Positions 1 to 29,238 of a stretch of 43,946 bases of DNA are shown here, in pieces. The position numbers and the translations under genes were made by a program. Where the stretch lies: positions 1 to 43,946 of the forward strand of contig PS015361.1 of the NCBI GenBank assembly GCA_048213135.1, written 5' to 3'. Within the stretch, counting starts at the first letter, position 1; every line of letters begins with the position of its first letter. This DNA comes from Reclinomonas americana ATCC 50394 (taxonomy: Eukaryota). Below the pieces are notes generated by a model. The model was given only the letters and a program-made list of their open reading frames with translations. It was not told where the DNA came from and did not search any database.

Positions 1-18
1 TGTGTGTGTATGTGGCAG

Positions 19-2699
19 TTGCACCCGAAGGACGCGTACGATTACTACCGCGATACGCCAATGTATCGTGATCGCAAGATGGAGTTGCTGCGTGTGCGTG
101 TCGAGGCCGGTGTGCAGGCGGCGCCGATGCTGCACGACGCCAATGTGCAGACCGCATGGTGTGTATTCATGCACGCTCGCTTGCCTCGCGGCGTGTGTGT
201 GTGTGTCCAACCAAACTCACTCCTCGCCTCAGGAACCTCAACAAGCCCGCGTCGGTGCAAGTCGAAGCCATCACGTACGAGGAGAGTGCGCTGGTCGACG
301 TGTTGCAGTCGAAGGATTTGCGCAAGTTCCTGTACGAGGCGGCGCCCAAGTTTCGTTGGCGTGCATGAGAGAAATGGAGCTCAAAATCGTTTTCAATTGG
401 TTCACTGACACCCGCCTGGTGATGCAGGATCGAACGCTCACTGCGTGAGAACGAGTCGGTGGATGTGTTGCTCAACGATTTCGAGCTGCTGGATCGGGAG
501 AACGATGCGGTGATCGGCGGTGGCAAGAGCGAGAACTCGCTGCACGAGTACATTAGTTTCACGGACCCACACTACAACCAGAACGACTCGGTAACCTGCA
601 TCGACTGGCACCCAAAGTTCCGCGGCGTCGTCGGCGTCTCTCTCGGCAAGAACAAGTCGTTCGACGAGCGAGTCCTCGACATGGGCAAGACCACCTCGTC
701 GTACATTCTCGTGTGGCACTTTTCGCAGAATCGGAGACCGAAGGTGCGTGCCCCCACTGGCGAGGTGTGGCATCCGTTGGGGCGTCAGAGCTGATCCTTT
801 TCTTCTACTCGTGCAGTTTGTCCTCGAAGCGCCAACAGATGTGTTGTGCTTCCGTTTCAATCCAACACAACCCCATTTGGTGGCGGGCGGCTGCACGAAC
901 GGCCAAGTGTGCTTGTGGGATGTAACAGAGGGTCTCGACATGTTGCGCTCGAAAAAGTCATCCGGTGGCACGTCGTCGTCCGCAACGGGCGGTTCGGCGG
1001 CTGCCGGCAGTGCGTCGGGTTCATCGGCCGCCGCCGGTGGCTCTGGCCAGCGTCTCGGCGAGGAGGACATTCCTGTGTTTAAGTGGATGTTGCGTGTCTT
1101 GCTTTTCCTCGTATTCATCATCGCGCACGTGCTCACATGGCACTATTTTTTGTGACAGTCGTGCGTCTAATGTCGAGTGCTCGCATCGGCGTGTGGTCAA
1201 CGATGTTCGCTGGTTGCCCGCCGAGCACGAGGTGCGACAAATCGCTTTTTACTTATGCTGTGTACACCTGCTCATCTCTGCGTTGTCGTGCAGTTTTCCA
1301 CCGACGGCTCCGTGCGTGGCTCCGAGGATGGAGTATCACATCAATTTGCGTCCATCTCTGCTGATGGCACCGTGGGCGTGTGGGACAGCCGCAAGGAGCG
1401 CAAGGAGTCTCGCAGGGGACAGCGTGCACGCGATCGAGTTGCGTTGTCAGAGGCAGGGTTGATGTACATCCTCTCTCTCTTTTTGTGACTCACACGCGAC
1501 GTAACAAATACGCCAACAGAAAGCCACAGAACACTCGGAAAACGACGTGCTGCTGGTTGCCAAGCTGGCCATGTCGCGCATCGAATCGAGCGGTGAGTTG
1601 TCCGGCTCACAGTTGGTGCTGTCGAGGCCTGGCGAATCGCCGTATGCGTTCTACTGTTGCTCGGAGGACGGCGAGTTTGTGGTGGGCGACTGGACACCGC
1701 GTGTCGACGACGAAGGCAAGCCCATTGTCGGCGTCAATGTCGTGCGCGAAGTGTACCGCGGGCATCTGGGTCCTGCGCTCTCCATGGAGCGCAGTCCACA
1801 CTTCCCCGACCTGTTCCTCACGGTGGGCGACTGGAGATTCCACGTGTGGAAGCTGGGCGTTGCGGTGCGTTTGTGTGACGAAACGAAGATGTGGGAGTAT
1901 GTGTGCTGATCCACTCGCTTTTGTGTATCACAGCAACCGCTGTTGAGCTGCTCCTTCTCGCCACACTATCTGCGATGTGGTCGCTGGTCACCGCATCGAC
2001 CTGGCGTGTTCTTTATCGGTAGCGACGACGGCACGGTGGCCGTGTGGGACATTGTGGATCAGATCAGCAAGCCTGCGTTGGTGCACTCCATCGGCAACAC
2101 CTCGGTGCGCTGCATGGAGTTCTGGACCGACAGTCGCAAGAATCGTTGCGTGTGGCGATGGGAGGGGAGGAAGGGGGGAAATAGAAAGTGGTGCTCACCA
2201 TCATCATTGTGCTCGCAGACATGCAATACTTGGCGGTGGGCGACACGCAAGGCACGCTGCATATCATGGAGCTGCCGCGAGGCTACTCGCGTGCGGTACC
2301 CGACGAGCGCAAGCTGGTGGAGAGCCTGGTGAAGCAGGAGCTCACTCGCATCAAGTACGTCAATGTGCGTCGCTCGGTGCGCGCAGCGCAGCTGGCAGAC
2401 AAGAAGGCAGCGGTACGTGGGTTCCACTCGACCATCGCTGCGTAAGACTCACTCACCCCTCAAACTTGGCGCGACAGGAGCCCATGTTCCCTGGCTTGGG
2501 CGACATGGAGGGGGCCGGCAAGGGCGACGAGAAGGGCGGTGCATCGGGATCCGGCGCCGCCGCCGCCGCCTCCCCAATCATGCTGGAGGACTCACAAGAA
2601 TTCGTCATCCTCAAGGAGGAGTTCGGCAAGCTCTTTGCCAAGCAACTGGCCGCCGACGCCGACAGCGAAGCCACGGCGGCGGCTGGCGAGTACGCCTAA
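19..2699 (+). CDS. DNAI3: Axonemal inner-arm dynein intermediate chain WDR63/IC140-like (WD40), 5' truncated by window edge, 9 complete introns
   Basis: Spliced translation ...EAGVQAAPMLHDANVQTAW|NLNKPASVQ...LHEYISFTDPH...VTCIDWHPKFRGVVGVSL...SFDERV...YILVWHFSQNRRPK|FVLEAPTDVLCFRFNPTQPHLVAGGCTNGQVCLWDV...MERSPHFPDLFLTVGDW...WSPHRPGVFFIGSDDGTVAVWDI...LAVGDTQGTLHIMELP matches WDR63 blocks as I recall them. Donors at 159, 350, 744, 1089, 1232, 1438, 1865, 2145, 2413; TAA at 2697-2699. Confidence 0.85.
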
Positions 2700-2872
2700 T
2701 CCCCCTTCTTGGCGACTTTCTCTCTCTGTCTGTCTGCTTTTCCTTGTGTCTGTCGTTGTGTGTGTGCGTGTGGTGCGTTGTGTACGAAGGCAATATCTGA
2801 TCGTGAGGTCGAGTGCATCGAGAATGCATTGCAAGATGCACCACCACGCCACGCGCAGCACAGCACAACTCT

Positions 2873-3317
2873 CTAATCATCCGAGCTGACCACGCTGCTG
2901 CGAATCCACGCCTGCAGCAAATCGACACAAGTGAGCACCCGAAGCCAGTCAGTGTCACCACAGCCGAGCAAGCAGACCTCCTCCATGCGCTTGGCCACGA
3001 AGAGAGTGACGGCGCCACCGAGTGCTGCTCCGCCCTTGCAACACACATAGTCGCAATCAATCTCTCTCTCCCCACATTGGAAGAGAATGCGATCAAAGGA
3101 AGGAGGGGAAACATACCAGCACACCGGCCACCACTGGTCTCCTACTGTAGGCCGCCAGTCGAGGCGCCATGCGATAGCCCGCAAGTGCGCCACCCGCCGC
3201 ACCTTACAGCACAAAGAACAAAGGTCAGTGAAAATGTGCAGAAGAGGAGGACATGCTTGCAGTACCTGAGAACACCATGATGCGCTTCAGAGTCTTCCGC
3301 AAGTCGCCGAGGCCCAT
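2873..3317 (-). CDS. Small (77 aa) glycine-zipper membrane protein of unknown function, 4 exons
   Basis: Exons 3317-3266, 3202-3117, 3034-2978 and 2911-2873 join in frame across GT-AG introns to give MGLGDLRKTLKRIMVFSGAAGGALAGYRMAPRLAAYSRRPVVAGVLGGAALGGAVTLFVAKRMEEAWIRSSVVSSDD*. It has two GxxxG-rich hydrophobic segments and is not visible as one ORF in the track. Confidence 0.6.
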
Positions 3318-3678
3318 TCTCTCTGTCTGCGTCTCTGACTCGACTCGTGATTGATCTTGTCCTCGACGTTCACAAGAGAGATGTGGTGTCGCCGAGAGCG
3401 TTGCAGCGTGAAAGTGTGCAGTACAAGCTGTTCAACTACGCGCGAGGCATGTGCGGAAAGAGAGCCAGTCACAGCACGAATCGCGCGCAACGTCGCACTT
3501 CGACGTGAGTTGCTTCTTTGCTGCTCATTTGCCATCACGGCGTTCATTCCATACAACGCCAGGTGGCAAGCAGAGCAATCTATGACACCTGCCAGGCGTG
3601 CTGTCGGAGATGGTCTCGAGCTCGAACTCCGCGCGCGCAGGACAGACACTTCCCCATCCTCGACTCGTTGAGCGCGAT

Positions 3679-6600
3679 ATGTGGTCGCAGTCACTTCGAC
3701 TGCGGCTGCTCGGCCTGATGCCGCCACAGCGCACCACTGCGGTGGTGCAGCAGATGGTGTGGGCATCCACGCGCGCCTCCATTCAGCGTGTGGAGAGCGA
3801 GTCGTTCCTCAGTGGAGCCTCTGCGTTGCGTAACAGACTGAGAAGAAGAGTGGAGAGGAGAGGTGTGAGCTGATGCACAAGCAAAGAGACAACGCGTGCG
3901 TGAGAGAGTGTGAGTGTGTGTGTGTGTTTGGCCCACATGGGCATGCCTGTGTTGGTTTTGGTCAATCTGCATGCTCTTCTCTCTCGCTTGACTCTCACTG
4001 TGCGCGCGCGTGTGTGTGTGTGCGTGCTCGCTCGTTCTGCTCTGTGGGAGAAGAAAAAAACGAGTCGACTGCTGCAAAGTTTTGATTGATGTATAATGTT
4101 CGTTTTCCCTCGCAAACACACAGATGCACAGATGCACTCTCTCTCTCTTCCTTTCTCTCTCATTGTGCTCGCTCGACCAGCGCATTCACACACAGATCAG
4201 TGATTGATGAAATGGGAAACGTGGGGGGGGGGGTTTGGCTGTCAGTCATCTGCATGTCGTACTCACTCGCACACGCGCATGCACACATACAGTCAAGTGG
4301 TGGACGACATGTATCAACAGTGGCAGGCGGATGCCAACTCGGTGCCGGAGTCGTGGCGCAAGTTTTTCGGCGATGTGGATCGCTCGGGTGCTGTGGATCC
4401 GAGCAAATCGATTCCCTTTGTGCCGCTCGCACGCACCACCGTCCTCTCGGCGGCGGCGGTGGAGGCCACTGGATCGCAGGCGTCGCCCATGACCAGCAAG
4501 AGCGTCGAGCGAGAGCTGCAGGATCACAACATTCGTTGCGTGTGTGTGTGTATTGTCTTCTTCTTGTGCTGCCGTTCCTGACCCTCTCGCGTGCACACAG
4601 TGACACAGCTCATTCGTGGGTACCGCGTGCGTGGCCACTTGCTGGCCGACCTGGACCCGCTCAAGCTCGACAAGCGCCCCTACGCGGCCGATCTCGATCC
4701 AAGCAGCTACGGTTTCACGGAGGCCGACATGCAACGCAAGTTTTACGTGGGCGAGAGTCTGGGCCTGGTGGCCACCGAGGAGGAGCCGCATTCATGGCGC
4801 ACCCTCGAGTCTATCATTGCACAGCTCAAGTCTGCGTACTGCGGCCGGCTCGGTGTGGAGTTCTTCCACATTGCCGATCAGGGCCAGCGTGCTTTCCTCG
4901 GTCGCATTGTTGCGCATATTGTTGTTGTTGTTGTCGTCGCGTTTCATTGCACGTTGCTTACTCGTGCTGCAGATGGAGCGCCAGAACCCGTACGCACTCT
5001 CGGCAGAGAAGAAGAAACGTATCCTGCTGGGTTTGCTGCACGCTGACCGCTTCGAGAACTTCCTCAAGACCAAGTGGACCACGGCCAAGCGCTTTGGACT
5101 GGAGGGTGGCGAGGCTCTGATCCCGGCTCTGGACATGCTGATTACGCACGCGTCGGAGCTCGGTGTCGAGGCTTGCGTGCTCGGCATGCCCCATCGCGGT
5201 CGTCTTTCTGTGCTGTGCAACATTGTTGCGTCGCTGATGCTGCTGATGATGGATGCACAGTGTGCTCTCTGCTCACTCTTTTTCTCTCCCATTNNNNNNN
5301 NNNNNNNNNNNNNNNNNNNNNNNNNNNNNNNNNNNNNNNNNNNNNNNNNNNNNNNNNNNNNNNNNNNNNNNNNNNNNNNNNNNNNNNNNNNNNNNNNNNN
5401 NNNNNNNNNNNNNNNNNNNNNNNNNNNNNNNNNNNNNNNNNNNNNNNNNNNNNNNNNNNNNNNNNNNNNNNNNNNNNNNNNNNNNNNNNNNNNNNNNNNN
5501 NNNNNNNNNNNNNNNNNNNNNNNNNNNNNNNNNNNNNNNNNNNNNNNNNNNNNNNNNNNNNNNNNNNNNNNNNNNNNNNNNNNNNNNNNNNNNNNNNNNN
5601 NNNNNNNNNNNNNNNNNNNNNNNNNNNNNNNNNNNNNNNNNNNNNNNNNNNNNNNNNNNNNNNNNNNNNNNNNNNNNNNNNNNNGCGCGTCCGACTCACC
5701 AGTGGCGTCGGGTGCTTCTCAATCACGTTGTACATGTGCGGCTGAGTGAACTTGGGCTCGTCGATCTCGTTGTGTCCGTGACGGCGGTAGCACACAATGT
5801 CGACCACCACATCGCGGTGGAACTTTTGGCGCCACTCCATCGCGGCCTCCACGGCAAAGATGACGGCCTCTGGGTCGTCGCCATTGACGTGGAAGATGGG
5901 TGCGCCGACAGTCTTGGCCACGTCGGAGCAGTACGGCGACGAGCGAGCCTTGCGCGGATCAGTGGTGAAGCCTGCTCGCCACGGGTGAGCGTCGATGCAC
6001 ACCAGACGGGGGAGGCAAAGAAAACCCACGTACCAATCTGGTTGTTGACGATAATGTGCACGGTGCCGCCAGTAGTGTAGGCGGGCAGGTCCGAGAAACC
6101 GAGCGTCTCAAACACGACTCCCTGACCGGCAAACGCGGCATCGCCGTGCATGAGGATGCTCATCACCTTGTTGCGCTCGACATCACCGCGGAAGTGCTGC
6201 TTGGCACGCGTCTTGCCCTCGACCACCGGGTTGACGGCTTCGAGGTGCGACGGGTTGGCAGTCAGCGACAGGTTGACCTTCTTGCCGTTCGGCAGGTTGC
6301 GGCTGGTGGACTCGCCCAGGTGATACTTGACGTCACCAGAGCCACCCCACACGGCGTCGACCAGATCGTCCTCCTCCACGTGGCCGTGGAACTCGGCGAA
6401 CAGAGCGCGCATGGGCTTTTCCATCTGCGGTGANNNNNNNNNNNNNNNNNNNNNNNNNNNNNNNNNNNNNNNNNNNNNNNNNNNNNNNNNNNNNNNNNNN
6501 NNNNNNNNNNNNNNNNNNNNNNNNNNNNNNNNNNNNNNNNNNNNNNNNNNNNNNNNNNNNNNNNNNNNNNNNNNNNNNNNNNNNNNNNNNNNNNNNNNNN

Positions 6601-9245: not shown

Positions 9246-10521
9246 ATGGGAACGATGCGACTGGCCCACTGTTGCGTCGCCCGGTGATCGACACCACCAG
9301 CGCATCGTCGCATGCTCACCAAGTACGCACACAGTGTCAGACATTCACGTGCTGCCGTCGTCGGCTGGCCTCTTTTCACACGCACTCTTGTCACCGAAAC
9401 GCATGCTCGGCGCGCTCAACATCAAATGGCGTCGCGGTCGCAACGCATACCCTCCCGCGCTGGTCACTCGCAGCCTCGACGATGCAAAGCAGCAAGTGTG
9501 TGCGCGTGTGAGAGGAAGAGATCATCATCTTTTGTCGTCGTCGTCGTCTCACGTGGTGGCGCTTGTCATTCAGGGCGCGAATCACTTTTTCGTCACTGGT
9601 GACCTCACCAACTTGGCCACCGAGGACGAGTTCGCGTACGCTCGCCATCTGCTGGCGGCCGGTGCGCGGATTTCGAGACAACTCGCCCCCTGTGTGTGCT
9701 CACTTCCCCTTTTTGATGCAGACGCCTCGGTGTGGCAACACTCGACGGTGATACCCGGCAACCACGATATCTACACGTACGGGTGCCCACTGCACGATCG
9801 GTTCGCCCGACACTTCCTGCCGTCGGGCGTGTCGACAGCAGCGGCGTTTCCGCTGCACAGCACAGTGCAGAGCGGCACGCAACGTGTGCAGATCCTGGCG
9901 TTCAACTCGGCCGTCCCCAGACCGCTGTTCATGTCGGGAGGGCGTGTGTCGGCCGAGCAGTGGGAACGAGCAGAGCGCCTGTGGTCACCGCAGGTCGGTC
10001 GGATCGAGTCTCCCCCGCTCCCTTCCCGCCCCACATGCTGACTGTGTGTCGCAGAAACCGAGTCCCGACGTGTTCCGTGTGGTGGTACTGCATCATCCAC
10101 CACTGCCACGACGAACACCTCGCTCGCAAACCATGCACGGACTGGACGCGGTCGACATTGAGCGCATGGCGCAGTTCTGCGAGCGGCATCACGTCGATCT
10201 GGTGCTGCACGGTCACACGCACACACCGAGTGCCGTTGCGTGCTCCATCCACCGTCTTCTCTCTCAGTATCGCCCGCACCTCACTCCACTCCTCTCCTTC
10301 CCTCTCCCTCCCTCTCGCAGCGCCGACTGGCGAACAGCGCCGGAACGCCCGTCTACGAGTCCGGCAGCACCACGATGCTGGCCGAGAATCCACTCGTGAC
10401 GGCACGCTACAACATGTATGAGGTGCGCGACGGCAAGCTGGTACGCGCATGGTCGCGAGTCTTTGACACCAAGAGCAACTCGTTCCGCGAGGTCGACCTG
10501 CCGGTGCTGCATCCCGAATAG
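9246..10521 (+). CDS. Calcineurin-like metallophosphoesterase (CpdA/Icc-like), 5 introns
   Basis: All five metal-binding motifs are present after splicing: RLAH|LSDIH, VTGDLTN, IPGNHD, VLHHPP, LHGHTH. TAG at 10519-10521. Confidence 0.9.
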
Positions 10522-10597: not shown

Positions 10598-12849
10598 TCA
10601 GTCGCCGACCTCTGACGCTATTACCGTATTGAGCAGTGTGGTGCGTCGATCGACCTTGCTGATGTCCAAGTGCACCGCACCGCCGCCATTGTGACTGTGG
10701 AGCGAGCGCAGCGTGAGTTAATGACCCCCACGGCGACACAACGCATGAAAGACAACGCAACTGATCGCGTACAATCGCACAGAGAGTACGCAAAGAACTC
10801 GGCAGAATCGTTCCCGCCACAAAGACACCGTGCACCGTGCGACCACCCTGCTGAAAATCGCGAAACTCCAGCTGCAACATTTCAGGTAAAGTGAGTCGGC
10901 GCAACAAGACTCGAAGTTGCAGCCACACGCGCGCACCCGTAATGATTGCAGCGTGCCATTCACGAACGCAGACGGACTCAGCAATTGCGGCACGTCGGCA
11001 GTGAACCGTCGGCACTCATTCAGCAACACATCAAACACCTGTCGCACACTCCTGCCTCGCGCCACCACATGCACACAGTTCGCCCTGTGTGAAGCACGCG
11101 TGTGGGCGACAATCAACGAGCATTACTCATTGACCTTGAGCTGGACGCAACTTGGCGGCGCCTGGTCGCACACCCGGCGTGAGGTCAAGTGGTCTCAGCT
11201 CCACATCCAATCCTGCAACACCGACGAGTGTCAGCAACGTGTGGGGGAAAGGTGCAGTGCAGCTCGAGCCAACCTTCCCGATCGAGCACGTTGCGCACAT
11301 AGGGCGGGACCGGAGTCCACACAGCGAGAGGTCGATTGCCGGCACCGCGACCAAAGAAGGCGCACTCTGTCGGCCACAACACATAAAAGTATTCACACAA
11401 TCCGTTCTGATAGGAGGACCACAACGAAGTGATGGCCTGCTCCCTGGAGGTCACAAAGATAGCAGGACGGTGAGATGCACCAGCAAGCAACATCCATGCA
11501 TCAACGCACGCAAACCATTCGCGTATTCTCGACGTCAGAAACGCCGAGTCGTCGGCCGACAGGCTGCTCAGCACAGGCGACAGCGTGTCGAGTGTTTCCG
11601 TGTCCACGGCCGAACTGCTCGCAGCACTCACGAGAATGAACAAACACGCGACTGTGGTGCAGATGGTGAAGACCCACGAGTGGATCATCGCACCTTCGTT
11701 CCTGCGCGACCTTGAGGTGCGCAGCGGTACTGGCTGGCACGGCTGACGAAGGATGCGCAAAGTACAACAGGCCCTGGCACAGTGAGCGCGTCTCGCCAAA
11801 CACCTCATCCTGTGCACTCTCATGTTGGTGGTCGGCTTGCTTCAAGATACACGGAGAGACTCGCGAATGACGCACCTCGGCGGCGTGCACACCCAGACAT
11901 TTGAGCAACGCCGATGTGTGCTCCGTGGATCGCGTCTGCTGGCACCACGCAAACGGCGACGACGAAGTGAAAGCCATTTCCGTGCGCAGAATCCAGTCAC
12001 GCGGCACATTGTCGGCACGCTACGCACCACAGCAACGAGCAGCGCATGTCAGACAGGGAGAAAAACGAACACAACACTGAAAACTGATGAGCACCTCGGT
12101 CGGTGGCGCGGCCGCAGCAACGCGCAGAGTCAACAGCTTCACCGTCGACCCCGTTGTCGTTGTAGTGGTGGCGGTCGTCGTTGTCGCAGCCGCCGCCGCC
12201 GCAGCAGCAGCCGCCGCAGCTGCCGATCCAACTTGCACCTTGCGAGACGCCGCCGCACTCCGCGCAATCACCTCGTCCACCCATTCTTGCTCCGAGGCAG
12301 TCGCCGGTGCAGCACCAACCGCACCCGCAATCATCTCGTGGAACCCATTCTGCAGCCCCGCTCCCAGCGCCGCGTGTCGCGACACGTCCTCCTGCATCTC
12401 CATGGTCAACAACACTGCGAGACACACACACACAGACACACACAGACCTCCCAACTCGTCAGTCGACGCACACCGTTGGCCGCCGCAGTGGTTGTGGTGG
12501 CACCTCTCAACTGGCGATCACTATCATCGTCGTCATCTTCATCATCATTATCGGCTTCACCATCATCATCGCGATCGTCGCCTTCATCGTCGACATGAGG
12601 AGTTCGCTGCCGCGATCGGGATGCTCGCGTTGAAGGCGCTGGCGGTGACTTGCTGGTGGGCCGGCGTCGTGCCAGTGGCAGTGGCGATGGCGGTTTTCGT
12701 GGAGGTGAGGAACCCGATGCAGCCGCTGTTGTCGTTGTTGTGCGTGTGGCTGGCGCCTGCAAGAATTTTTTCCGCTTGGTCGCCGGTGCACCGTTGCCGA
12801 GTGACCCGTTCAGCCCAGAGACGGACTGGTCCTCGGCGGCGCGTTTCAT
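10598..12849 (-). CDS. DONSON: DONSON (downstream neighbour of SON) replication/CMG assembly factor homologue, multi-exon
   Basis: After a low-complexity N-terminus, ordered blocks PRDWILRTEMAFTSSSPFAW, LCQGLLYFAHP, W|EQAITSLWSSYQNGLCEYFYV, VRNVLDREG, DVPQLLSPSAFVNGTLQSL and VAGTILPSSL recall DONSON [28 protein letters not shown], SLY...CPYFYV, PPTLLSPVAFRGAT and ITGPIMPHSL. Start and last exon are less certain. Confidence 0.82.
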
Positions 12850-15032: not shown

Positions 15033-18000
15033 ATGGGTGATCTGCAGTGGCAACGCATTCCGCATGGTAACGGGCCTCCACCGCGCTTCGGATCGTGCAT
15101 CGTGCCCTTTGCAGGCTACCTCGATCAGTACCTGGTGTTTGGTGGCACCAACCAGAGTGTCTTCTTCAACGACATTTACACGTTTTCCACGAGTTGCGTG
15201 CTTGCGAGTGCGTGCGTGTGTGTCTGTGTGTGTCCGGCAACTCACGCTGCCTCGCCGCAGGCACTGTGGAGTGGTACCGACGAGAGGGATGGGGCACTGT
15301 GCCACCGTCGATGTTTGCCTTCTCGACCTTTGTGCATGGCAATCATCTGTATGTGTTTGGAGGCTACGGTGGCGCCTGCACCAGCGAACTGTACTCGCTG
15401 AGTTTTGGTGCGTCGCGTCACTCTCTCTATCTCTCTCTCGTTCTCTCCTTCTCTCATGCACTCACTCGTGCGTGCGTGTGCGTGCATGTAGACACCTTCG
15501 AGTGGGAGAACGTGATGACGACGGGCGATCGACCGCCTCCTCGATATCTGCACACCACCACACGAGTCGGCGGTCTGGTGGTTCTGTACGGTGGCCAGGT
15601 CAGCGACGGCTCAGTCACCGACGACATGTACGTGCTGAGCCTCGTCTCCATGCGATGGGAGCGAGTGGTGTTTGCGCCGGGCGAGATGAAGCCGGTGGCT
15701 CGGTGTGCGCACTCGATGACGGCGTGGGATGGCTCGTGCGTGCTCTACGGCGGCCGCTCCAAGAGCGAGCCCATGAATGATCTGTGGAGTTTTGACATTG
15801 GTGTGTGTGTGTGCGTATGTGTGTGCTCACTGGTGGAGCTGGCGCTCGCTCACTCTTGCGCTTGTGTGCGTTGCCGCAGAGAAACGCATGTGGACGCAGA
15901 TCATTTCCGACGTCGCCACACCACCTTCGGTGTGCGAGCACTCGTGCGTGATGCTGCCGGATTTCCGCCTGTGTGTGTATGGTGGCAACAACGGGCGCAC
16001 GCGAAGCGATCTGGTCTGCTTGTTCACACCGCGCTTCTCCGACTCGCGGACGCTGGTCACGGGTGTCGACATTCACGTTTTTGAGCCGCCGATCTTGAAC
16101 CGGGAGACGGTTCGATTTCTCCCATCCCCCTCCCCCCTCCGACCTCCGGCTCTCCTCCCTCACCACTCACTTCTCTGCAGTGCGGCTGGCCCACACGGCG
16201 GTCATTGCATGCGGCTGTTTCCGTGGCCAACAATGCACTCGGTCTGCGCACGGAGCGCGGTCTGCAGACTCACATGTTGATGTGGGGCGGTTTCGATGGT
16301 CGCCATGTTTTCGGCGATATGTACACTCTTTACGTGCCGCCCCGCGCCAACAATGCCATGTCGCTCACTGGCCTCAAGGCGCCCGTCGATGCGCCAGGTA
16401 TGTACACGAGTGGCACGAGGGTGTCTGTCTGTCGTTGGGAGTTGTGAAGCCTCACGCAATCACACTGTTGTGCTGGACAGACGAGATGTTGATTCTGGCC
16501 TTGCGTGACGGCTCCACTATTGAGGTGTCGCGGCCGCTGCTTGAGGCACACTCGACGTACTTCCGCACGCTGACCACCGCCTCGCGCACCGTCATCATGT
16601 CGTCGGTGCCGAATGAGGCCGTGGAGCAAATGGTGGCATTTTTGCAGGGTGGTACGCTCACGGTGAGTGGCGTACAGACGCTGTGGTTTCGTCGACACAT
16701 TCCTTTCTTGCTATTCAACTCACTCACTGTGGCGGTCTGCAGATCAAGACGTTCCGAGAGGGTGCTCAGCTGGTCGAATTGGCCGTGCGCTTCCGCCTTC
16801 CAGCGCTTCTGGAACAGATCAAGCGCATTTTCAAGCAGCGCCAGCAGCCACAAGACCCGCCGTCACGTCGACGTGGTTTGTTTGCATCATTCCTGTTTTC
16901 GTGCTCCTGTTTGTTTTGCTGACCACTGGTGGCGAGCAGTTATTGGCGACGTGCCACTGCAGCCCGACGGCTACGAATACCTGATCAACATCAGTACTGT
17001 GACGGACTTGCTGGAGATGTGCGACGAGTTCAAGGCCGAGTTGCCGGATCTGCGTGACACCGTGGTGCACTTTATGGTGCGCAACTACCCAGAGGTGTCG
17101 GTCACCTCGCATTTCAAGATGCTACCGCGCCCACTCCGCGAAGAGGTCTGTCGGTGTTGTCTTTTGTTTGCGTCTCCTTTTGCTCACCTGCGCTCGGCAT
17201 GATAACAGATTCGCAATCGGTATCAAGCCCTGCTGTACTCGTCACCACTGGAGGAGCTTGACGATCCGACGCGGGCACTCGTGCTTGGCGTACACGACGC
17301 CACGCTTGCGGCGGTGTACGGCCGGCAGTCCACTCCGCAGGCGCAAGACCGCGAGTACGAAGAGTCGCCTGGCGAAATGTCGGCCGCATTCAGCATGCAA
17401 GGCCTGAGCCGCAGTGACTTCGACGACACTCCACAACCGCATTCGTCAATCACAGCCAGGGCTCCGATTCTGCGCGACTCGCCGCCGCCGGTCAAGCGCT
17501 CCATCTTTGATGGCCTCCCGTCGGGCACGTCACACCTTAAGTCCGCCACGCTCTTCCCCTCCACCGCCACCGCCACGCTGAGCAGCTTGCCGGCCGCCGT
17601 GCCCGTGGCTCAGCAGCTCATGCAACAACAGCAGGGGTCGTTGTCTCAGGCGCCACCATCGATGCCGTCGGTGCGGTCGGCGTCTGTACCTCGCTCACAG
17701 TCCTCGCCGGCACCGGCCATGCCGCCGCAGTCAATTTTCGATCGCGCAACGCCAGCGTCAGGAGTGTGGTCGTCGTCGACCAGCAGCACGGCAGCGACGC
17801 CACACAGTATGTTGCCGTCGGCATCGTCAACGCCGGTGCCGCCGTTTGAGTCGCGACGCACGGAGCAGTCGATTGCGGAGCGTCTGGAGGCAGAGAATGC
17901 GCTACTGCAGCAGCGCTCGATGGAGCAGCAGATGCGGCAGCAGCAGTACGCTGAGCCACGTATGGACGGACGCACACTGACACCGTTGGAGAGGCTAGAG

Positions 18001-21000
18001 CAGGATTACCGAGCGCGCCAGGGTGGAGTGCCACCACAGCAGCAGCAACAACAACAACAACAGCCACCACCACTGGTCCAGTCGGCCGCCGACTTGGCCC
18101 TGGCACACACCGCAAACCCGGGCTCGTCGGCAGTTGACCAATTTGAGCGAGACTTCCGTGAGCGACAGATGCAACAGACGGCGGCCATGCGATCGTTGCA
18201 GGACCAAACACTGCTGGGACCGCAGGCGCGGCGTACGGTGTCGCTCGAGGAGGAGTTTGAGGAGCGGCAACGCGAACTGCAGAGGCAGTCGGCCGCAGCC
18301 GGTCGACCAGCGGCCCCACTTGAGCAGCTGGAGGCGGAGTTGGCGATGAAACGCAAGCGCGACGAGCCCCACCACGGTTACATTCCGCCGGTGCAACCGC
18401 CCTACGAGCAGATGACGCAGCTGCCGCGACCGGCGTTGCCGCTGGAGACGGAGCACGAGTTGCAGAGGACGCGAGCGCAGCAGCAGCAGCAAATGTCGGG
18501 TGCGCGATCGTCGCCAGAGCCACGGCACCAAGCCGATCCATCCTCCGCCTTGGCCGTTCTGGAGCAACGCTATGTGATGCAGCAGGCGGAGCAGCAAGCG
18601 GAGCGGAATCGCCAGTTTGACGCACAGTACCAGCCGGCGACACAGGCAATGCCACCACTGGGCCAGCTGGGACAGATGTCTGAGGGACCATCTAGGTCTG
18701 CTGGATCACCGCTGGAGCGACTGGAGCAGGAGTACTTGCAGCGACACCCGCCACAGTCGATCTTTGACCGACCTGGTGTGCCTGGAGCGCCGCCACCGGC
18801 CAGCGCCGCCACTTCGTCTGCGTTGGAACAGCTGGAGCGCGAGCGCAAGGATCGTCTGGATAAGATTGCTGCCGAAGCCGCGCAGCGGCAGAAGCAGCAC
18901 GTTGCCGCGCAGCAGCCGTCGTCGTTTGACGGCAGCACGCCGGCACTGCAGCGGTTAGAGTCCGAGTATCGTCAGCGTCAAGTGGGGGAGCAAGCGGCGC
19001 AACAACAGCAACAGCAAGCGCCAGGCGCAGGCCCTCGTCGTGCCAGTGCCGCCGAGGAGGAACTGCGACAGCAGGTATCGCAACTGCAGTACGATATGGC
19101 GCAATTGCGCAATCAGCAGCAGACACGTGCTGCCTCCAGCGCGGCCCTGGGCGCTGCAATGGGAGCAGCCATGGCCAGCGGCTCTGTGCTTCCCGATGAC
19201 AGCATTCCGCACAGCCGCAACTTCCCGACTCCACTGCTGCCACAAGGCCAGTACGCCAATTCTCCCATTGCACTCCCGCGCTCTGCCAGCGGCTCGGAGA
19301 GGTCACTGAGTGGTGAGTGGTGGAAGCCTGCATTTCCTTATTTTGTTTCATCTCCTCACCATGCCCAACAAAATATAGGTCGTGTCAAGCGTGAGGGCTC
19401 TGTGGCTCCGCGAATGCAGTCAGATGAGTGGACCTACGGAGGCATGCCACCGAGAGGTGACGAGCCGCCGTACAGCGGCGCCCGGGCGCCGTCGGATGTG
19501 GCCTCCGAGTCGTCCGAGTACGCTGAACCGCTGCAGTACATGTACGCGGAGAGTGGTGTGGGCGCGTCGGGTGGTCCACCGGGATCCACACCGCTGCCGC
19601 AGATTGCGCCGCCAGCGCGCATCATTCCCATGCCCGCGTCGTCTGCTAGCGAGGCATTCCTCACGACCGAGGATGCTCTCGGGCCGCGATCTTATCTGCC
19701 CGGCGATGAGCTCCGACAGCGTTCGCCCGTGTCGGTGGGACCACCGCCTGCCACCCAACTGATGCCTGTGCCCACTGTGCCGTTGCGTCGCTAAGCAGCG
19801 AAAATATCGAAGATTTCGACTGACTTTGTTTGGATGACGACCAGTGCCTACGAGCCACCCATGGAGGTGCAGGACACGCATCGGCGTCCACTGCTGCGCA
19901 GTGGATCTCCGTCTCTGGCCTCCCATCGCTCCATGAGTGCCATGGTACGCGCGTATGTGAATGTTTGGTGTCAATCGTCTTCTTTGATCGCTTACCGTTG
20001 TTGGTTTGTGCAGCCCACCAGTGGCACCGATCTCGACGATCTGGTGGATCTACCGCCGGGCGGCTCGTTCGGTCGTCGTGTGGAGGATCTGTTGAGGAGA
20101 CATCCACTTGACGAAGACCCGCTGTCCGATGTTTCCGGTATTGCGCCAACATACCCACAAAAGTGCGTTCAGTAGGCCTGCATCAGTGCGTTGCGGCGAG
20201 GCGTAACTGACCATGCGTGTGTCGTGCAGAGTGGATCCCCGACAGAAACACGAGGCCATGGCGGCCGACATTGATATTGTGCGCTCCGAATTGTACGCCG
20301 CCATCAAGCAACTGCACGATGTGAGTGATGTGTGGTGGTGCCAGGACTTTAGGGATGCACGATACTCATCTTCGGATTATTTGCTGTGCAGTCGGAGGAG
20401 GCTGATCAGTTGGCAGAGACGGCAGCGGCACTCAACATGACGATGCGCCAGAAGCACTTGTTGAAGCCGCAGTTGCCGGCCACGCCGCCACCACGGTTAG
20501 CCAAACCACCGCGACCCGTCAACGCAGCACCCGCACGTCGTTCCTCTGCAGCAACTGTCACACCAGAAAAGTACGTGTGCCATGTGAACCTTGTGTGCAC
20601 AGCGAGAGAGAGAAAGAGAGTAACCAACGAACGACACGCTGACAGGGAGTCGGACGTTCCAATTTTGCACTCGTCGATGGAGGAAGGTCGCCGGCTGGCG
20701 CTGAAGCGTGAACGAGTCACATTCATGCGCACCATCAACGAGGAGAAGGTGTGTATGAGTGCGCGCAGCAATGTATGTCGTGTTAGTTGTCGCTCACTGC
20801 ATGGCACAGGCGGCATGGGTGGACGAAAATCACATTTTGCGCACGCTCGTGAGCCTCCATCGAGCACACGGACCGGAGTCGTTTGAGTTTTTGGGGTGCG
20901 TCGCTCAATTCCCAATCTGTTGTAATCGCTCTCCGAACCATGCTCACGAGGACGGTGGACTACAGCTTCTTNNNNNNNNNNNNNNNNNNNNNNNNNNNNN

Positions 21001-22911
21001 NNNNNNNNNNNNNNNNNNNNGAAGGAGAACCCGAAGGCGGCACTCATCTATGCCGACCAAATGGAGGACAAGAAGAAGCGCTGTGCGGAGCTGGAGACCG
21101 AGTTGACGTTGCTGGCGAAGCAACTGGCCAACTTGAAGACGCAGCGTGAGCATTTCTTGGGGCTGGTGGAGGTACGCGTGGTTGTCAGTCTTCCTCCCCC
21201 TCCCACCGTCGCTGTCCATCTCATTTGTGATGCGCAGACGGACGTCAACAAGGACCACATGGCACTGGCACAAACCGAAGCCGTGCACATTCAGGAGAAG
21301 CAGAAGCTGATGGACGAGCTGCAGGCTGAGATGCAAAGATTGGACACGTGGCGGCGACTGGACGGCGAGTTGTTCCAGTGGCTCGACTCGCAAAAGCTGA
21401 AACTGCGACGAGTTGCGTGCANNNNNNNNNNNNNNNNNNNNNNNNNNNNNNNNNNNNNNNNNNNNNNNNNNNNNNNNNNNNNNNNNNNNNNNNNNNNNNN
21501 NNNNNNNNNNNNNNNNNNNNNNNNNNNNNNNNNNNNNNNNNNNNNNNNNNNNNNNNNNNNNNNNNNNNNNNNNNNNNNNNNNNNNNNNNNNNNNNNNNNN
21601 NNNNNNNNNNNNNNNNNNNNNNNNNNNNNNNNNNNNNNNNNNNNNNNNNNNNNNNNNNNNNNNNNNNNNNNNNNNNNNNNNNNNNNNNNNNNNNNNNNNN
21701 NNNNNNNNNNNNNNNNNNNNNNNNNNNNNNNNNNNNNNNNNNNNNNNNNNNNNNNNNNNNNNNNNNNNNNNNNNNNNNNNNNNNNNNNNNNNNNNNNNNN
21801 NNNNNNNNNNNNNNNNNNNNNNNNNNNNNNNNNNNNNNNNNNNNNNNNNNNNNNNNNNNNNNNNNNNNNNNNNNNNNNNNNNNNNNNNNNNNNNNNNNNN
21901 NNNNNNNNNNNNNNNNNNNNNNNNNNNNNNNNNNNNNNNNNNNNNNNNNNNNNNNNNNNNNNNNNNNNNNNNNNNNNNNNNNNNNNNNNNNNNNNNNNNN
22001 NNNNNNNNNNNNNNNNNNNNNNNNNNNNNNNNNNNNNNNNNNNNNNNNNNNNNNNNNNNNNNNNNNNNNNNNNNNNNNNNNNNNNNNNNNNNNNNNNNNN
22101 CTATGTGATTGGTGCCGTACGTTGTCAGTCAACTCACATTACGCGCAGTCATTCGAGGACGATCGCGTGGCGTGGGAGCAAGACCGTCGGCGGCTGCAAT
22201 TCGAGATCGACGAGGAGCAGAAGCGTGCACGAGATCGGTACAAGGACTCGTTGCTGGAGCTGCAGTACTTTTTGCAGACGCTGGAGGCTGAGAAGTCACA
22301 GTTGTCGGCCAAGGTGCGTTTCTCTTTTCTGTTTGTGCACCATGTACAAGCGCAACTGTTGAACGTTTACTGACGTCGCTGCAGGTCATTGAGCTGGGAC
22401 AGCTGCTACACCGCGAACGCGAACGCGAGCGAAATATTGCCGAGTTTGCCAATGCCTGCAAGACCGTCAACCAGCAGTTCCGCTCTGGCGAGCTGGTCAA
22501 GTACATGCAGGACGGCAACACGCTGGCGAGTCTGCGGTTGCACTTTGAGGTGGAGCGCTCGCAGGCCATTGATAAGGTCGGTGGATTTCGTTGTTGGGGG
22601 ACGGATTGGGATGCACATTGCAACTCACAAACATTGTCTTGCAGAGCCGCGAGTTGCGCGACGTCAATGGTCGCCTGGAGGCCGAAGTAAACCACGTGGT
22701 CCGCCAGTGTGCCGACATGGAGCGCACGATTTACGAGGTCAACGAGATGCAGCACTCGGTGGACCCGTTTGCCGCGGTTGAGGCACCCGGCAGCGACTTG
22801 CGAGCACGTCCGTCTGCAAGAGAAAATGGCGCCGCCTACGATTACAACGCGCAGGGAGGCGACGAGGGTTACGAAGAGGATGGAGACGAGGGAGAGGAGG
22901 TGTACGAATAA
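15033..22911 (+). CDS. Large Kelch-repeat + BTB/POZ protein with long Pro/Gln-rich repeat region and C-terminal coiled coil; crosses two gaps
   Basis: Kelch repeats (PPPRFGS...LVFGG, LYVFGGYGG, PPPRYLHT...LYGG, ARCAHSM...LYGG, CEHSC...VYGG, LMWGGFDG) are followed by BTB-like LLEAHSTYFRTL and BACK-like LPDLRDTVVHFMVRNYPEV...FKMLPRPLREE. Splice phases link exons through 17209-19312 to the coiled-coil exons, ending TAA at 22909-22911. Continuity across the N gaps is assumed. Confidence 0.7.
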
Positions 22912-23139: not shown

Positions 23140-23183
<44 letters not shown>

Positions 23184-23416: not shown

Positions 23417-24360
23417 CTATAATGCCGCGGTGGTGGGCGGTGGAGTTGCGTGCGCTGTTGGCGATGGCGTTTCCCTGTGTGGATACTCGGCCTCGCCAGA
23501 GGGCTCGTACTGCTGCGCGTAGCTCCCCTCTGGCGCCGCGGCTGTCATTGGTGGACCTCGACTGGCCACTTGTCGCGCAGTCGCCAGGTCCTCCAAGTCG
23601 GTCGCCAGCTCACGCATCTGCAGCTCTCGTGCGTACTCCAGTTCCCGCATCCGTTCCTCCTCCTCCAGTGCCGCCTGTGACGACACGTCCGTGGTCAGCA
23701 CGGGAGAACGCACACACTCTGTTTTGTCAATCAGACTCTTCGCCACACGCAACTCGCTCATCGTCGAGCTTCTTCATGTCGATAAAGTACTGGTACTTGG
23801 AGGAGGTGATGCCGAGAAAGTCGGCGATCTTCAGACCGACCTTGTCGAGCACTGCGCAGTGCATCAGGGCTCCCACGCTCAACTGCCCCTCCCACAAATA
23901 CGTCCTCGCACACACACACAAACGCACCTTGTACAGCGCGCTTGCCAAACGCCTTGAACTTCTGCTTCCAGTTCCGCTTGCCTTCTCCGCCCTCCGCGGC
24001 GACACCGTCCACATCATCGCCCGCTGGCGTGGACGACGACGATGAGGGCGTCGACGATGACGACGAACCAGCCGGCGACTCAGCGGCCACCATCGACGCC
24101 GGCGATCCAGCCATGCTCACATGCACTTCGGTCGCCACTGCTGGAGGTGGCGGTGGTGGCAACGGTGGAGAGGACGGCGGCGCGTCGCGATCGAGCTCCG
24201 CTGACACGGGCGACGATATGCACGACGTTGGTGCTGAATCGGTCAGCGCAACGCCCACAGACTGCACCGACGCAGTGCCAGGCTCCTCCTCTTCTTGCTC
24301 CTCTTCCTCCTCCTTCTCGTGGTCGAGAGCGGCGGGCACAGCTGCTTCTTCTTCGCTCAT
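23417..24360 (-). CDS. FAM177-like protein, 2 introns
   Basis: WKQKFKAFGKRAVQ|VLDKVGLKIADFLGITSSKYQYFIDMKK resembles the FAM177 core (DFLGEKIASVLGISTPKYQYAID), followed by an acidic helix. Confidence 0.65.
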
Positions 24361-24413
24361 GAAAGCAACAATAGTTCACGGGACCAACCAACGGCTACCT
24401 TCCGCGTTTTCAC

Positions 24414-25537: not shown

Positions 25538-25568
<31 letters not shown>

Positions 25569-25740
25569 CATACCTCCTTGGTTCGCTCCGCCAGCATCGA
25601 TCCCAGTTCGCTCTTCTCCGCCTCCTGCACCACTGTCGGAAGTGCACGTAGCTCGTCGCAGTCACGCTCCAGTCCGGCGATTCGACTCCTCAACTCCTCA
25701 TTGTCTGTCGGAAGATGCGTGAGGAGAGAGAGAGAGGAGG

Positions 25741-25772
<32 letters not shown>

Positions 25773-27109
25773 TGGAGTGCGGCTGACATACCTCGTTGCA
25801 GGAACTGCAGGNNNNNNNNNNNNNNNNNNNNCTTCCTGCTGCACACGTGGTGACTGAGTGCTTGATTCGCTTACGCAGTTGGTGTCGGTGCGACGGGAGC
25901 TGCGCGACCTGCGCTGGAAGTCGGAAGATGATCGCTCACAGCTGCTGAGCACTGTGGGCGAGTACCTTGCCGAGCACGACCGCTGTGTGTACCGCTTGCA
26001 CCTCCTGCTGGAACAGGTGCTGAATTTGACCGCTGCCCCGGGCACCATCACCACCGTGCTGGAGCCACGACCCAATGTCAATCCAGTGGTGGCCACCGCC
26101 AGTTTGTTGCGTGGGCTTGCGCCGCGTGAAGAGCATTGCTTTTTGCTAACCCAGAGTGCGCAGGCTGGAGCAAGTCAATGGCCTCCTCTCGACGCAGCTG
26201 ACAAAAGAGGTGGCGCAGCTGTCGGCAGCCGCAACCAACGCCGCACCTGTGCGCTACGGTGATGATGTGGAGAGTGCCGGTGGCGACGGTGAGGGAAGAC
26301 CACATTCGTCGGAGAAGAGGAATGGAGCGGAGGGGGCGGCAGGCGATGCGGGGAGCGAGAGTTCAGAGTCGGAGGACAGTGACGAAGACGGCGACGCGGC
26401 AGGCGACGGTGCCTCCAAGGCCAGCAGTGTGCGCATCACCGAGGGCAACTCAGAGCTGCTATCCCGCCCTTCGCTGACGACGCGCCTGAGAAGAATACTC
26501 GAGCAGCTCGACATTCCACGTGGCAAGGTCTGTGACTGTCACACGCGCTGCACGTTGATGAAAATCCCATCGACTCACCGTGTCGTCAACAGGAGCTGGT
26601 GGCCATCATTGTGGAGCTACGTCGACGCTTCCAGGAGCTCCAGGCACAGTACGAGCACGAGCGCCGACGAGTGGCATCGCGTGTCGGCGCCGTGCGCAAC
26701 GAGATGAGTCTGATTGCGGTGGAACGCGACACGCTGGCCATGTCGCTCAACAAGGACCACCGACTGTTGCTGCTCAAGTCGCTGCCGTGAGTACAGTGCG
26801 AATCGGTCAACAGGCTGCAGTGTCCATCGAATTTCTGAGTCTCCCCTTGGTGCGCAGGTTGGCACCTCCGTCTGGCGACGGAAAGAGTGTGGTGGAGCCG
26901 GGCTCGCCACCAGCCGAGTTGAAAATGCCCGAGGGCGTCGATTTTGGTGAGCGTGCTAAGTGGTCGTGTGTTCAATGGAAGTTTCGCTGACGTTCTGTGG
27001 TGGCGCAGGCAACGATCTGAATGACCTCATGGTGCGCAAGGATCAACCGCAACCCAAGGGCGGCGACACAGAGGATTCATACAGCAGCGACGACGACATT
27101 GGGGATTGA
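24414..27109 (+). CDS. Multi-exon coiled-coil protein of unknown function; exons at 25538-25811 are on an inverted contig
   Basis: Ser/Ala/Pro-rich N-terminus, then heptad-rich exons (RSRLEAELEASKTVIRKLTTRVNEL, RRELRDLRWK, LRRRFQELQAQYEHERRR) joined by phase-compatible GT-AG introns. TGA at 27107-27109. Confidence 0.65.
25538..25811 (-). other. Second gap-flanked inverted contig
   Basis: Plus-strand ...CGC GCC CG (25517) joins the reverse complement C CTG CAG TTC... in frame (RARLQFLQR|DNEELRSRIAGLERDCDEL...RTKE). 20-N gaps lie on each side. Confidence 0.85.
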
Positions 27110-27158
27110 TGTGACAACAACTACAACAGCAAACAACAACAACAAATACAATGTTCTT

Positions 27159-29238
27159 TTACAATTCAGTCGCCTTGATGTACTCTCGCATCATCTCGAA
27201 ACACGCTTGTGGTTGATCGGCCGGAGCCTGCGACCACAATGTGGGGGTACGTTGGCTGATTATGACAAAGAGAGCGCAGCGAGTCGGGTGGACGACGAAC
27301 CATGTGACCGGCATTGGCGACCACCACTTGTGTCATACCACCGGAGGTTGTGTACCAGCCGGCCGTGTTGTTGTTCACAATCCACACCTGTCGTGCGGCC
27401 GCCCGAAACGCCGCAGCTCCCGGCCACTCCAGCTTTTGCAGATAGCGATCTGTGCCCATTACTAGGAAAAGAAAGAGAGGAGGTGCGGTGAGTGGCGATG
27501 GTGTCGCGTGACACGAGAGCATAATGACGCACAGTTGCAGATGAGATCCACCTGCGGCAAATCAGCGGTGAGTAGCGCGTTTAAGGCAGAGAGCATGAGG
27601 CGGCGCACGAAACATTGCCGTTGTACACGAGCATGGGCATGGCGGCGAGAATGTCGGGCCACAGTGGCAGTGAGGTTGGAGCATTGAGATCCGGAATCAA
27701 CGCCGTCTCCACCTGCAGGCACACCACGTGCGATGGGTGCCGAGAAAAAACACAAAGTGCATGACATTGACCGACACACACCTGCGCGCCCTGAGCACCC
27801 CACGCTGGAGCACCGGGTGGAATTTGCAGTGCCTGCCGCACGTCACTCCGCGCGAGGTACTCGGCCACACGCGGATCATCTGCTGCGTTGAATTGTCGAA
27901 TGTCGTACTGCGTGGCGCGATTGTAAGCGAGGCGTCTCGACGCACCAGCCGACCATCCTTCTTCGCAACTGGAGACACATTGCCGCCGAGGGTGGTAATG
28001 GGATTCAACAGACCGTAGTAGCACGACGTGTTGAATGCGGTGATGTAATCGCCCTGATCCAGCAGTTTCTTGCAGTTTTGCGCCTGCGCCGACAGGGCCA
28101 CGAAATCCCTGCGCAACGCAGTGACTATGGTGAGATGGCGAAAGAAAAGCAGCTTCTCTACGCGATGCTTACGAACTGGGAACCAATCAGGCCATTGGCG
28201 TCTGCGCGCGCGAGAGAGAGTCAGAGAGGGAGAGAGAGTTAGAAGAGTGAGAGAGAACACATGGCGTACGTCGACTGGGAGACGCACAAGCATAGTCCGG
28301 AAACGAAAGGTTCTGCTCGATGGGCTCCACCTGTGATGGGAGCGTGGTGGTGAGTGACCAGTGGTGCTGATCGTGGCTCGGATGAATCCTCGCGCTTCGC
28401 TCTCACCCAACCGTCACCGATGGCCACCCCGGCGACGTGCAGCGGATACGAGGGACCGCGAACACGTCGCTGCTGCAACAGCTGCCACGCGATGTTGGGG
28501 GCCTGCAGGTTGTCGGTACGTGGGTATGACACACACGGTGATACGGGTTGAGCGAGCATGCACGCACCATGTGACCGGCAAACGACTCGCCCACAATGAT
28601 CAGAGGCCGCTGCGCAAACCGCGGGTGCTTCTCGCAAAAAGAGAGCAGTGCGGCCTCGGCCGCACGGCGCAACTGCACCTCGTTTTGCACGTACCCACCG
28701 CCCGTGCCGTCGTGAACCGCCGAGAAACCAGTGCCAAAGGGCTGATCGAGGTACAAGACATCGGCCAGCGCCGTCCACGACCACGGTGCCTCCTCCAGCT
28801 GCGGAGTTGCACTGCTGTCGACGCCACTGCGCTGCACACGGAACGGTCCATTCTCCGTGAACAAACCAAAGAGCGACGAGGCGCCCGGTCCACCCTGCAG
28901 CCACAGCAGCAGCGGCTTTGGCGACGATCGCGACTGCTGCTGCGACATGCTGTCCTCGATCAGCCAGTAAAAGAGCTGGCCGGGTACATTGTCGGCCACA
29001 GTGGCATTGAGACTGTGTGGCGTAGGGGTCATCAGTGACGGGGACGGGGGAGTGAGGAGGAGCACGAGGCAATGATCCGCAACAATCCGGCGTGCATGAC
29101 AAGTCGCGTCTGCAACGATGGTGGCAGGCCCGGCAGCGCTGTGATCAAGTCGGGCGATGCAGATCGGGAGGCCGTGGCATTACACAGGGAGGCCGCCACA
29201 AGGAAGGCAAGAAGCGCGACAGCTGTCGCTTGCGACAT
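27159..29238 (-). CDS. Secreted/lysosomal serine carboxypeptidase, family S10 (CPVL-like), 10 introns
   Basis: Signal peptide, then LITALPGL, HAG|FL, LFYWL, PLLLWLQGGPGASSLFGLFTENGPF, LYLDQPFGTGFS, GESFAG (Ser), AIGDGW, YNGN|VDLICN (Asp), AGHM|APADQP (His). Confidence 0.95.

Follow-up and report, generated by a model that had tools for sequence, protein, structure and literature searches.

A second class of 5' splice sites with the motif GTTGCGT in a gene-dense window of Reclinomonas americana

Our analysis of a 43,946-base window (the whole of the stretch analysed: contig PS015361.1 of Reclinomonas americana ATCC 50394, positions 1 to 43,946) supports the presence of two classes of intron start. 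The window has approximately 59% G+C and eight runs of N, and is dense with eukaryotic genes split by short introns. Most of these introns begin with GTNNG, referred to here as ordinary donors, and a second set begins with GTTGCG or, rarely, GTTTCG; judged from the sequence, the existence of this second class is confirmed. Few RNA-RNA contacts in eukaryotes are as conserved as the one by which the invariant 5' end of U1 recognises the 5' splice site. We give a probability of about one half to the following reading: the second set consists of major-spliceosome GT-AG introns that have a second kind of 5' site, N/GUUGCGU (rarely N/GUUUCGU; a slash within a sequence marks the exon-intron junction), which would be read in a displaced register, and for which an altered U1 is predicted.

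The class was counted in an intron table that merged homology-anchored introns with a gene model trained on them. The table holds 92 introns, namely 69 GTNNG, 21 class members and 2 others. The homology-anchored set, which derives from spliced alignments and alignments to solved structures, holds 39 introns, namely 25 GTNNG, 13 GTTGCG or GTTTCG, and 1 GTCTCG. The class thus accounts for 21/92 introns of the merged table and 13/39 of the anchored set, and the claim of the initial annotation that it is an abundant, mainstream donor class was borne out. GTTGCG was the commonest donor hexamer, with 19 cases against 14 for GTGCGT. The 21 sites named in the initial annotation all read as claimed (GTTGCG 19, GTTTCG 2) and occur in all three phases. 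They are listed below together with one sibling site; the lower-case letter is the preceding exon base, fractions are homologs choosing the intron in the neutral spliced alignment described below, and bit scores come from profile hidden Markov models (HMMs), the class model being given first.

350..427, plus strand: class intron, a/GTTTCGT, phase 2, WD40 gene; 11/14; gapless against homologs; 543.4 bits vs 26.6 for the alternative model
1089..1158, plus: class intron, t/GTTGCGT, phase 2, WD40 gene; 11/14; IPVFKW/IRASN gapless; 543.4 vs 521.7 bits
1438..1519, plus: class intron, a/GTTGCGT, phase 0, WD40 gene; donor 7/14; variable region; best rival donor GTGCAC at 1424, 3.4 bits lower
2145..2218, plus: class intron, c/GTTGCGT, phase 1, WD40 gene; 8/14; 543.4 vs 533.7 bits; model has one residue extra relative to four homologs
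3825..4292, plus: class intron of 468 nucleotides (nt), c/GTTGCGT, phase 2, 2-oxoglutarate dehydrogenase E1; 12/14; FLSGASA/QVVDDMY gapless
4535..4600, plus: class intron, ambiguous, c/GTTGCGT, phase 1, dehydrogenase; 4/14; gapless in MAFFT
4909..4972, plus: class intron, t/GTTGCGC, phase 0, dehydrogenase; 12/14; gapless
5225..5293, plus: class donor, t/GTTGCGT, phase 0; intron enters an N gap at 5294; located solely through its gapless continuation on the inverted piece 5685-6433, which carries the next conserved residues
9271..9334, plus: class intron, t/GTTGCGT, phase 1, metallophosphoesterase-like gene; 11/18; MRLAH/LSDIH gapless against all nine aligned homologs
10235..10320, plus: class intron, c/GTTGCGT, phase 0, metallophosphoesterase-like gene; 8/18; gapless over 25 residues against homolog P0257
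10695..10761, minus: class intron, a/GTTGCGT, family unassigned; trained-donor gene model only, not picked by the neutral-donor gene model
11052..11151, minus: class intron, a/GTTGCGT; donor picked by the neutral-donor model; acceptor uncertain, with an in-frame CAG also 67 nt into the intron
13471..13530, minus: class intron, a/GTTGCGG, phase 2, WDR18-like WD40 gene; neutral-donor model; the junction would read ...LVGHKSSVTGL, the usual WD-repeat spacing
15193..15260, plus: class intron, a/GTTGCGT, phase 1, kelch/BTB gene; neutral-donor model; Kelch domains on both sides
19782..19844, plus: class intron, c/GTTGCGT, phase 2; neutral-donor model; low-complexity region
21412..21421, plus: class-like donor, a/GTTGCGT, adjoining the N gap at 21422; sequence only
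23675..23753, minus: class intron, a/GTTGCGT, phase 0; neutral-donor model
26106..26163, plus: class intron, t/GTTGCGT, phase 2; neutral-donor model
27552..27613, minus: class intron, t/GTTTCGT, phase 0, S10 serine carboxypeptidase; 12/14; YNGN/VDLICN gapless
27908..27969, minus: class intron, a/GTTGCGA, phase 0, carboxypeptidase; 6/14, top choice; VSP/YDIR identical in close homologs
29013..29083, minus: class intron, t/GTTGCGG, phase 2, carboxypeptidase; 6/14, top choice, with one further vote using another acceptor; LPGL...HAG/FL gapless over 19 residues against homolog P0141
29860..29914, plus: sibling donor, g/GTCTCGA, pescadillo; solved-structure alignments

Tests without any donor preference indicate that the sites are real donors. 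Homology was available for 13 of the 21 sites, and the other 8 rest on gene models. A protein-to-genome spliced aligner, in which every GT...AG had the same cost, was applied with 14-18 homologs for each of four genes; its majority choices amounted to 37 introns, 12 class members included, and 11 class sites were the top choice of this donor-blind alignment. In head-to-head comparisons with profile HMMs, the model using the class site scored highest each time, by margins of 1.6 to >500 bits. The junctions that the initial annotation had placed within conserved motifs (FLSGASA/QVVD, AH/LSDIH, HAG/FL, VSP/YDIR and YNGN/VDLI) were all gapless against homologs in multiple alignments. The introns have the GT and AG ends of the U2 type, and their removal restores the frame and a homologous protein for the 12 placed introns, the 13th (5225) being placed by continuity. 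Boundaries displaced by one base (TT...AGN) were also considered and were ruled out by the conserved split-codon residues Y in VSPYDIR, L in AHLSDIH and F in HAGFL.

Gene models extended the analysis to the sites outside the reach of homology. A neutral Viterbi gene model, which scored codon usage, branch and acceptor and treated every GT as equal, picked 11 of the 21 sites, including six of the eight homology-free ones (11151, 13530, 15193, 19782, 23753 and 26106). When the Viterbi model learned its own donor tetramers, 14/21 sites were found and GTTGCG was the commonest donor hexamer (13/91). The gene model trained on anchored introns recovered 32/37 of these introns and 18/21 sites. When tblastn matches were given to the gene finder as hints of coding sequence, the models became worse, because the matches ran through in-frame introns.

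Several sites outside the 21 resemble the class. The sibling donor at 29860 has the class's C and G at +5 and +6, but carries C at +3 and a -1 G; its position is fixed by the solved pescadillo structure, chain residue 85 being the last of the upstream exon and 86 the first of the downstream one. In appearance, G/GTCTCGA is a bulged-base variant of GTTCGA. Copies of GTTGCGTG at 24873 (plus strand, after T) and 40105 (plus strand, after C) lie in unannotated DNA, with the genes at 25832 and 40480 downstream of them; they may serve as donors for 5' exons missing from the models, or for introns that lie in untranslated regions. Two candidates were rejected. A GTTGCG at 1859 was chosen as a donor by the gene finder, but the homologs place the donor at GTGCGT, position 1865, in 14/14 cases. 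GTTCTT, a possible third donor type with four model cases, was discarded: the case at 29904 is the 3' end of an intron (...GTTCTTTGCAG), and the remaining three were no longer present in the model with trained donors.

The motif itself is conspicuous at the length of seven bases. On both strands together GTTGCGT occurs 22 times, compared with 10.9±2.9 in dinucleotide-preserving shuffles, and none of 100 shuffles reached 22. The hexamer GTTGCG alone is not clearly enriched (58 vs 48±6.8; 7/100 shuffles reach 58). The 22 copies of the heptamer comprise 15 donors, 1 intron-internal copy, 4 antisense to exons and 2 in unannotated DNA, with 0 in sense exons, and the six sense-exon copies of GTTGCG that were inspected have C or G, never T, at the seventh position. 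GTGCGT, by comparison, is found in 14 donors, 13 sense-exon and 17 intron-internal positions. Among the sense-strand copies within genes, 15/16 GTTGCGT serve as donors, versus 14/44 GTGCGT. On these sequence counts, the class is real and abundant, and its heptamer is highly specific.

The initial annotation had described GTTGCGT as the image of G/GTGCGT moved by one base, and the base frequencies agree with this description, the conserved tail lying one base deeper in the class. T at +7 occurs in 17/21 class donors, matching the T that 55/69 ordinary donors have at +6. CG at +5+6 is present in 21/21 class members, partly by definition, while CG at +4+5 is present in only 28/69 ordinary donors; in the neutrally found set, the corresponding values are 13/13 and 16/25 (p=0.003). 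G at +4 is found in 19/21 class donors, and T at +3 in 13/14 anchored donors outside GTNNG (p=1e-6 against intron composition). Ordinary donors have G at +3 in 42/69 and C or T at +4 in 51/69 cases.

The exon base before the donor differs between the classes in a corresponding way. G stands at -1 in 46/69 ordinary donors and in 0/21 class donors (Fisher p=1.2e-8), and in the anchored set in 19/25 and 0/13 (p=1.0e-5). The base at -1 of the class (A9, T7, C5, G0) resembles the base at -2 of ordinary donors (A23, T17, C16, G13), as a shifted register would have it. A one-base displacement is thus well supported by the sequence statistics.

The two classes are alike in branch motif, acceptor and length. 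A CTSAC- or CTSAT-like branch motif is found 10-35 nt before CAG in both; the acceptor has C at -3 in 19/19 class and 62/69 ordinary introns; and the median lengths are 68 and 71 nt (p=0.54). Since branch, acceptor and length are alike, both classes use the same 3' machinery, and the class is not a minor type.

Other origins of the class were examined and set aside. The class is not U12-type, its donors being GTTGCG or GTTTCG and its branches CTSAC. An all-vs-all blastn comparison of 90 two-ended introns, carried out with introner-like copies in mind, yielded no more than (GT)n matches and a 14-base identity of two donors. Pairing of the intron 5' end with its own 3' part did not differ between the classes (p=0.72).

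We then considered how U1 could recognise such sites. Pairing was computed with ViennaRNA duplexfold, with mismatches and bulges allowed, using the canonical U1 5' end AUACUUACCUG from PMC4856993. The mean duplex energy was -1.0 kcal/mol for the class, -5.7 for ordinary donors and -2.7 for random GT sites, and no class member lay below -1.8 kcal/mol. No stable register of any kind was obtained with the canonical U1, and the +1 G paired with C9 in 2/21 sites. In the shifted register, the C at +5, which is invariant in the class, would face a U or pseudouridine of the canonical U1, for which the human-type GUUAAGU would make the best shifted site in place of GUUGCGU. The initial suggestion that the usual U1 reads these sites in a shifted or bulged register, in the manner of human GUUAAGU, was therefore not supported, as the class pairs less well than random GT sites. 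Because the class pairs poorly with canonical U1, a changed or variant small nuclear RNA (snRNA), the alternative offered in the initial annotation, is predicted, and on sequence grounds we regard it as a better bet than recognition by canonical U1. When all 16 possible base pairs were tried at U1 positions 5-6, G-C gave the strongest pairing for both classes (ordinary -9.0, class -7.1 kcal/mol). With this hypothetical G-C U1, 14/21 sites take up the shifted register, in which the +1 G is paired with C9, and G at +3 and C or T at +4 of ordinary donors would pair or wobble. A search of the window with Rfam found no snRNA gene at gathering scores, and at E<=1 only three sub-threshold matches to unrelated families.

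The following mechanism would agree with these findings. The intron would be cut at GU, and the base-paired part, GCGU, would lie one base further into the intron; this tail is the same as in the commonest ordinary donor, G/GUGCGU. The +1 G of the intron would occupy the place held by the -1 G of the exon in ordinary donors, so that the register would be displaced by one base at recognition. Stable pairing in the displaced register would require an snRNA matching G-C-G, and the U1 of this lineage, or one variant of it, is predicted to have a 5' end without the canonical pair of UU or pseudouridines at positions 5-6. The T at +3 in 13/14 cases fits pairing of U+3 and not a bulge of any base. 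In a more tentative form of this proposal, a single U1 5' end, or variant, possibly reads G-C-G-U, and one binding register would serve the two cleavage registers G/GUGCGU and N/GUUGCGU.

The class might instead be served by an snRNA of its own, a U1-like variant with a 5' end fully complementary to GUUGCGU that would work beside an ordinary U1 for GTNNGT and share the U2-type branch and acceptor machinery. Such a division of labour would have a parallel in U11, which is dedicated to minor introns. The near-invariance of the heptamer, the 15/16 sense copies used as donors versus 14/44 for GTGCGT, the universal CG at +5+6 versus 28/69 for CG at +4+5 of ordinary donors, and the failure of the canonical U1 5' end to pair with the class speak for such an arrangement. 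However, the two GTTTCG members and the four GTTGCG members ending in A, C or G show some tolerance, and one altered U1 in two registers covers the same data with fewer parts. We therefore think a dedicated snRNA unlikely.

An ordinary U1 in the normal register is a still less probable explanation. It would require one bulged U (at +2 or +3), with U1C and other proteins offsetting the weak pairing. GU plus U plus GCGU is indeed the commonest ordinary donor with one U added, the sibling G/GUCUCGA at 29860 looks like a bulged C together with a -1 G, and such registers exist in human, according to excerpts of PMC4856993. Yet in a bulged register, pairing should extend to both sides and the -1 G should pair with C9 as in ordinary donors (67%), while the class has a -1 G in 0/21 sites and forms no stable duplex. 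In addition, 13/14 anchored cases have T as the extra base, unexpectedly for a free bulge, and the energy of -1.0 kcal/mol with canonical U1, bulges allowed, is worse than that of random GT sites. It is very improbable that the class is a gene-modelling artefact whose true donors are adjoining ordinary GT sites: at 4535 a GTGTGT 5 nt downstream did receive 7/14 votes against 4/14, and the gene finder's GTTGCG at 1859 proved wrong, but 11 sites are the top choice of an alignment blind to donor sequence, five conserved motifs cross the junctions gaplessly, and neither the excess of the heptamer nor its lack in sense exons depends on which donors the models chose.

Several observations weigh against our preferred reading of a displaced register with an altered U1. 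All donor and intron counts come from one 44-kb window. Eight sites rest on gene models with an error rate of approximately 14% (32/37 recovered), and site 4535 is ambiguous: its rival at 4540, the GTGTGT noted above, uses another acceptor, and in the profile HMM built from the homologs 4535 is ahead by only 1.6 bits. With the hypothetical G-C U1, the mean pairing of the class is reached by 37.5% of random GT sites, so that pairing energy alone leaves the specificity unexplained. G at -1 would wobble with U10 in the shifted register, yet it is absent, and the G and C at +3 and +4 of ordinary donors could have their source in plain GC bias. As for the base before the donor, the initial annotation had stated that the class always follows a non-G base. 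The contrast with ordinary donors is solid (p=1.2e-8), but G before GTT is rare anyway, at 35/236 (14.8%) in spliced coding sequence and 143/961 (14.9%) in the whole window; 0/21 against a background of approximately 15% gives p≈0.035, and absolute avoidance of G is therefore weak as an argument when taken alone. Four of the 39 GTTGCG copies other than the claimed donors follow G, and the verified sibling G/GTCTCGA at 29860 does so as well.

If the more tentative form of the proposal is correct, the binding frame of U1 and the cleavage site would be uncoupled by one base in approximately a quarter of introns, a natural, genome-wide counterpart of a phenomenon that human genes show as a rare oddity. 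A lineage whose commonest intron start is unable to pair with the canonical U1 5' end would show how far the contact between U1 and the 5' splice site can drift. It would also offer a natural system for studying how the cleavage site is chosen independently of the U1 register, with U6 and U5, which make contact later, as the prime candidates for this choice. Co-evolved snRNA changes would be expected and could be read directly from the genome. Gene finders with a single donor matrix would mis-model approximately one quarter of the introns here, and the neutral and single-matrix gene models in this analysis made such donor errors. In a literature search combining the motif with intron or splice terms, no description of a GTTGCG or GUUGCG donor was present among the matches listed, which does not prove that the class is undescribed.

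The genes named above occupy the following positions.

10-2699, plus strand: WD40-repeat protein gene, homologs approximately 40% identical, presumably dynein-intermediate-chain-like
3679-9110: 2-oxoglutarate dehydrogenase E1 gene, by homology
9246-10521: metallophosphoesterase-like gene, with homologs; we take the name from its motifs
13224-14524: WDR18-like WD40 protein gene, by domain and homology match
from 15033: kelch/BTB protein gene, by domain matches
27159-29379: S10 serine carboxypeptidase gene, by homology
29499-32456: pescadillo gene, by domain match and solved-structure alignments

Fungi, unicellular relatives of animals and alphaproteobacteria are among the sources of the best dehydrogenase matches, which share only 64-69% identity with it. 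Between the N runs 5294-5684 and 6434-6841, the middle of this gene (5685-6433) lies on the minus strand and its flanking parts on the plus strand; the scaffold appears to be mis-oriented here, with an inverted contig. In the metallophosphoesterase-like gene, the plus-strand introns 9496-9573 (9/18 votes) and 9662-9721 (13/18) contain no in-frame stop, and the former also has a length that is a multiple of three; a plain open reading frame therefore passes through both, and they were found only by homolog-guided alignment. The carboxypeptidase intron 27445-27532 (minus strand), which follows DLICN, has the acceptor CCTAG, ending in TAG, in 12/14 homologs; the same 12/14 rule out CACAG, 12 bases downstream, which the gene finder had chosen. 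A metagenome scan with one pescadillo exon gave 164 pattern matches, of which 0 were confirmed. No gene is modelled on either strand of the stretches 32457-35052 (2.6 kb) and 36950-40479 (3.5 kb), and their neighbours, the genes at 35053-36949 and 40480-42534, encode long proteins rich in Gln, Ala and Ser. Runs of (GT)n or (TG)n are frequent within introns and at ordinary donors (GTGTGTGT...), for example in 3825-4292, 159-232, 15801-15879 and 32160-32235. Such runs at donors offer several in-frame alternatives and make the choice of donor ambiguous there.

The class can be compared with four known systems. Introner-like elements are introns that spread as copies of a mobile element. They resemble the class in giving many introns with an identical 5' end; however, past their first 7-10 bases, the class introns share only (GT)n runs. 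U12-type introns have the donor consensus RTATCCTT and the branch consensus TCCTTRAY. Like them, the class forms a second, high-information donor type beside the ordinary one and would call for its own snRNA, but its donor is not RTATCCTT, and its branch and acceptor (CTSAC...CAG) are those of ordinary introns. The class is also far more frequent than the U12-type in human, which excerpts of PMC4856993 put at 0.36% of sites, beside 0.9% for GC-AG.

Bulged registers between the 5' splice site and U1, with the bulge at +2 or +3, are known from human (legend to Figure 1C of PMC4856993). According to the excerpts of that paper, bulged and asymmetric-loop registers are, like shifted ones, established in human genes but uncommon. 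Bulged registers share with the class one extra U between GU and the paired tail. In contrast, the class lacks a -1 G, its extra base is nearly always T, and its computed stability is poor. The closest parallel is provided by the human shifted-register sites of the GUUAAGU type, which are established but rare (Roca and Krainer 2009, as cited in the excerpts of PMC4856993). In both, the cut falls at GU, a U follows, the usual tail lies one base further on, and the +1 G stands in the place of the -1 G. The tail is AAGU in human and GCGU here, and a shifted control oligonucleotide reached -6.5 kcal/mol (from the same excerpts) as against -1.0 for the class with canonical U1. In human, the validated noncanonical registers together account for 1.5% of 201,541 sites (excerpts of PMC4856993), whereas the class accounts for 21/92 introns here.

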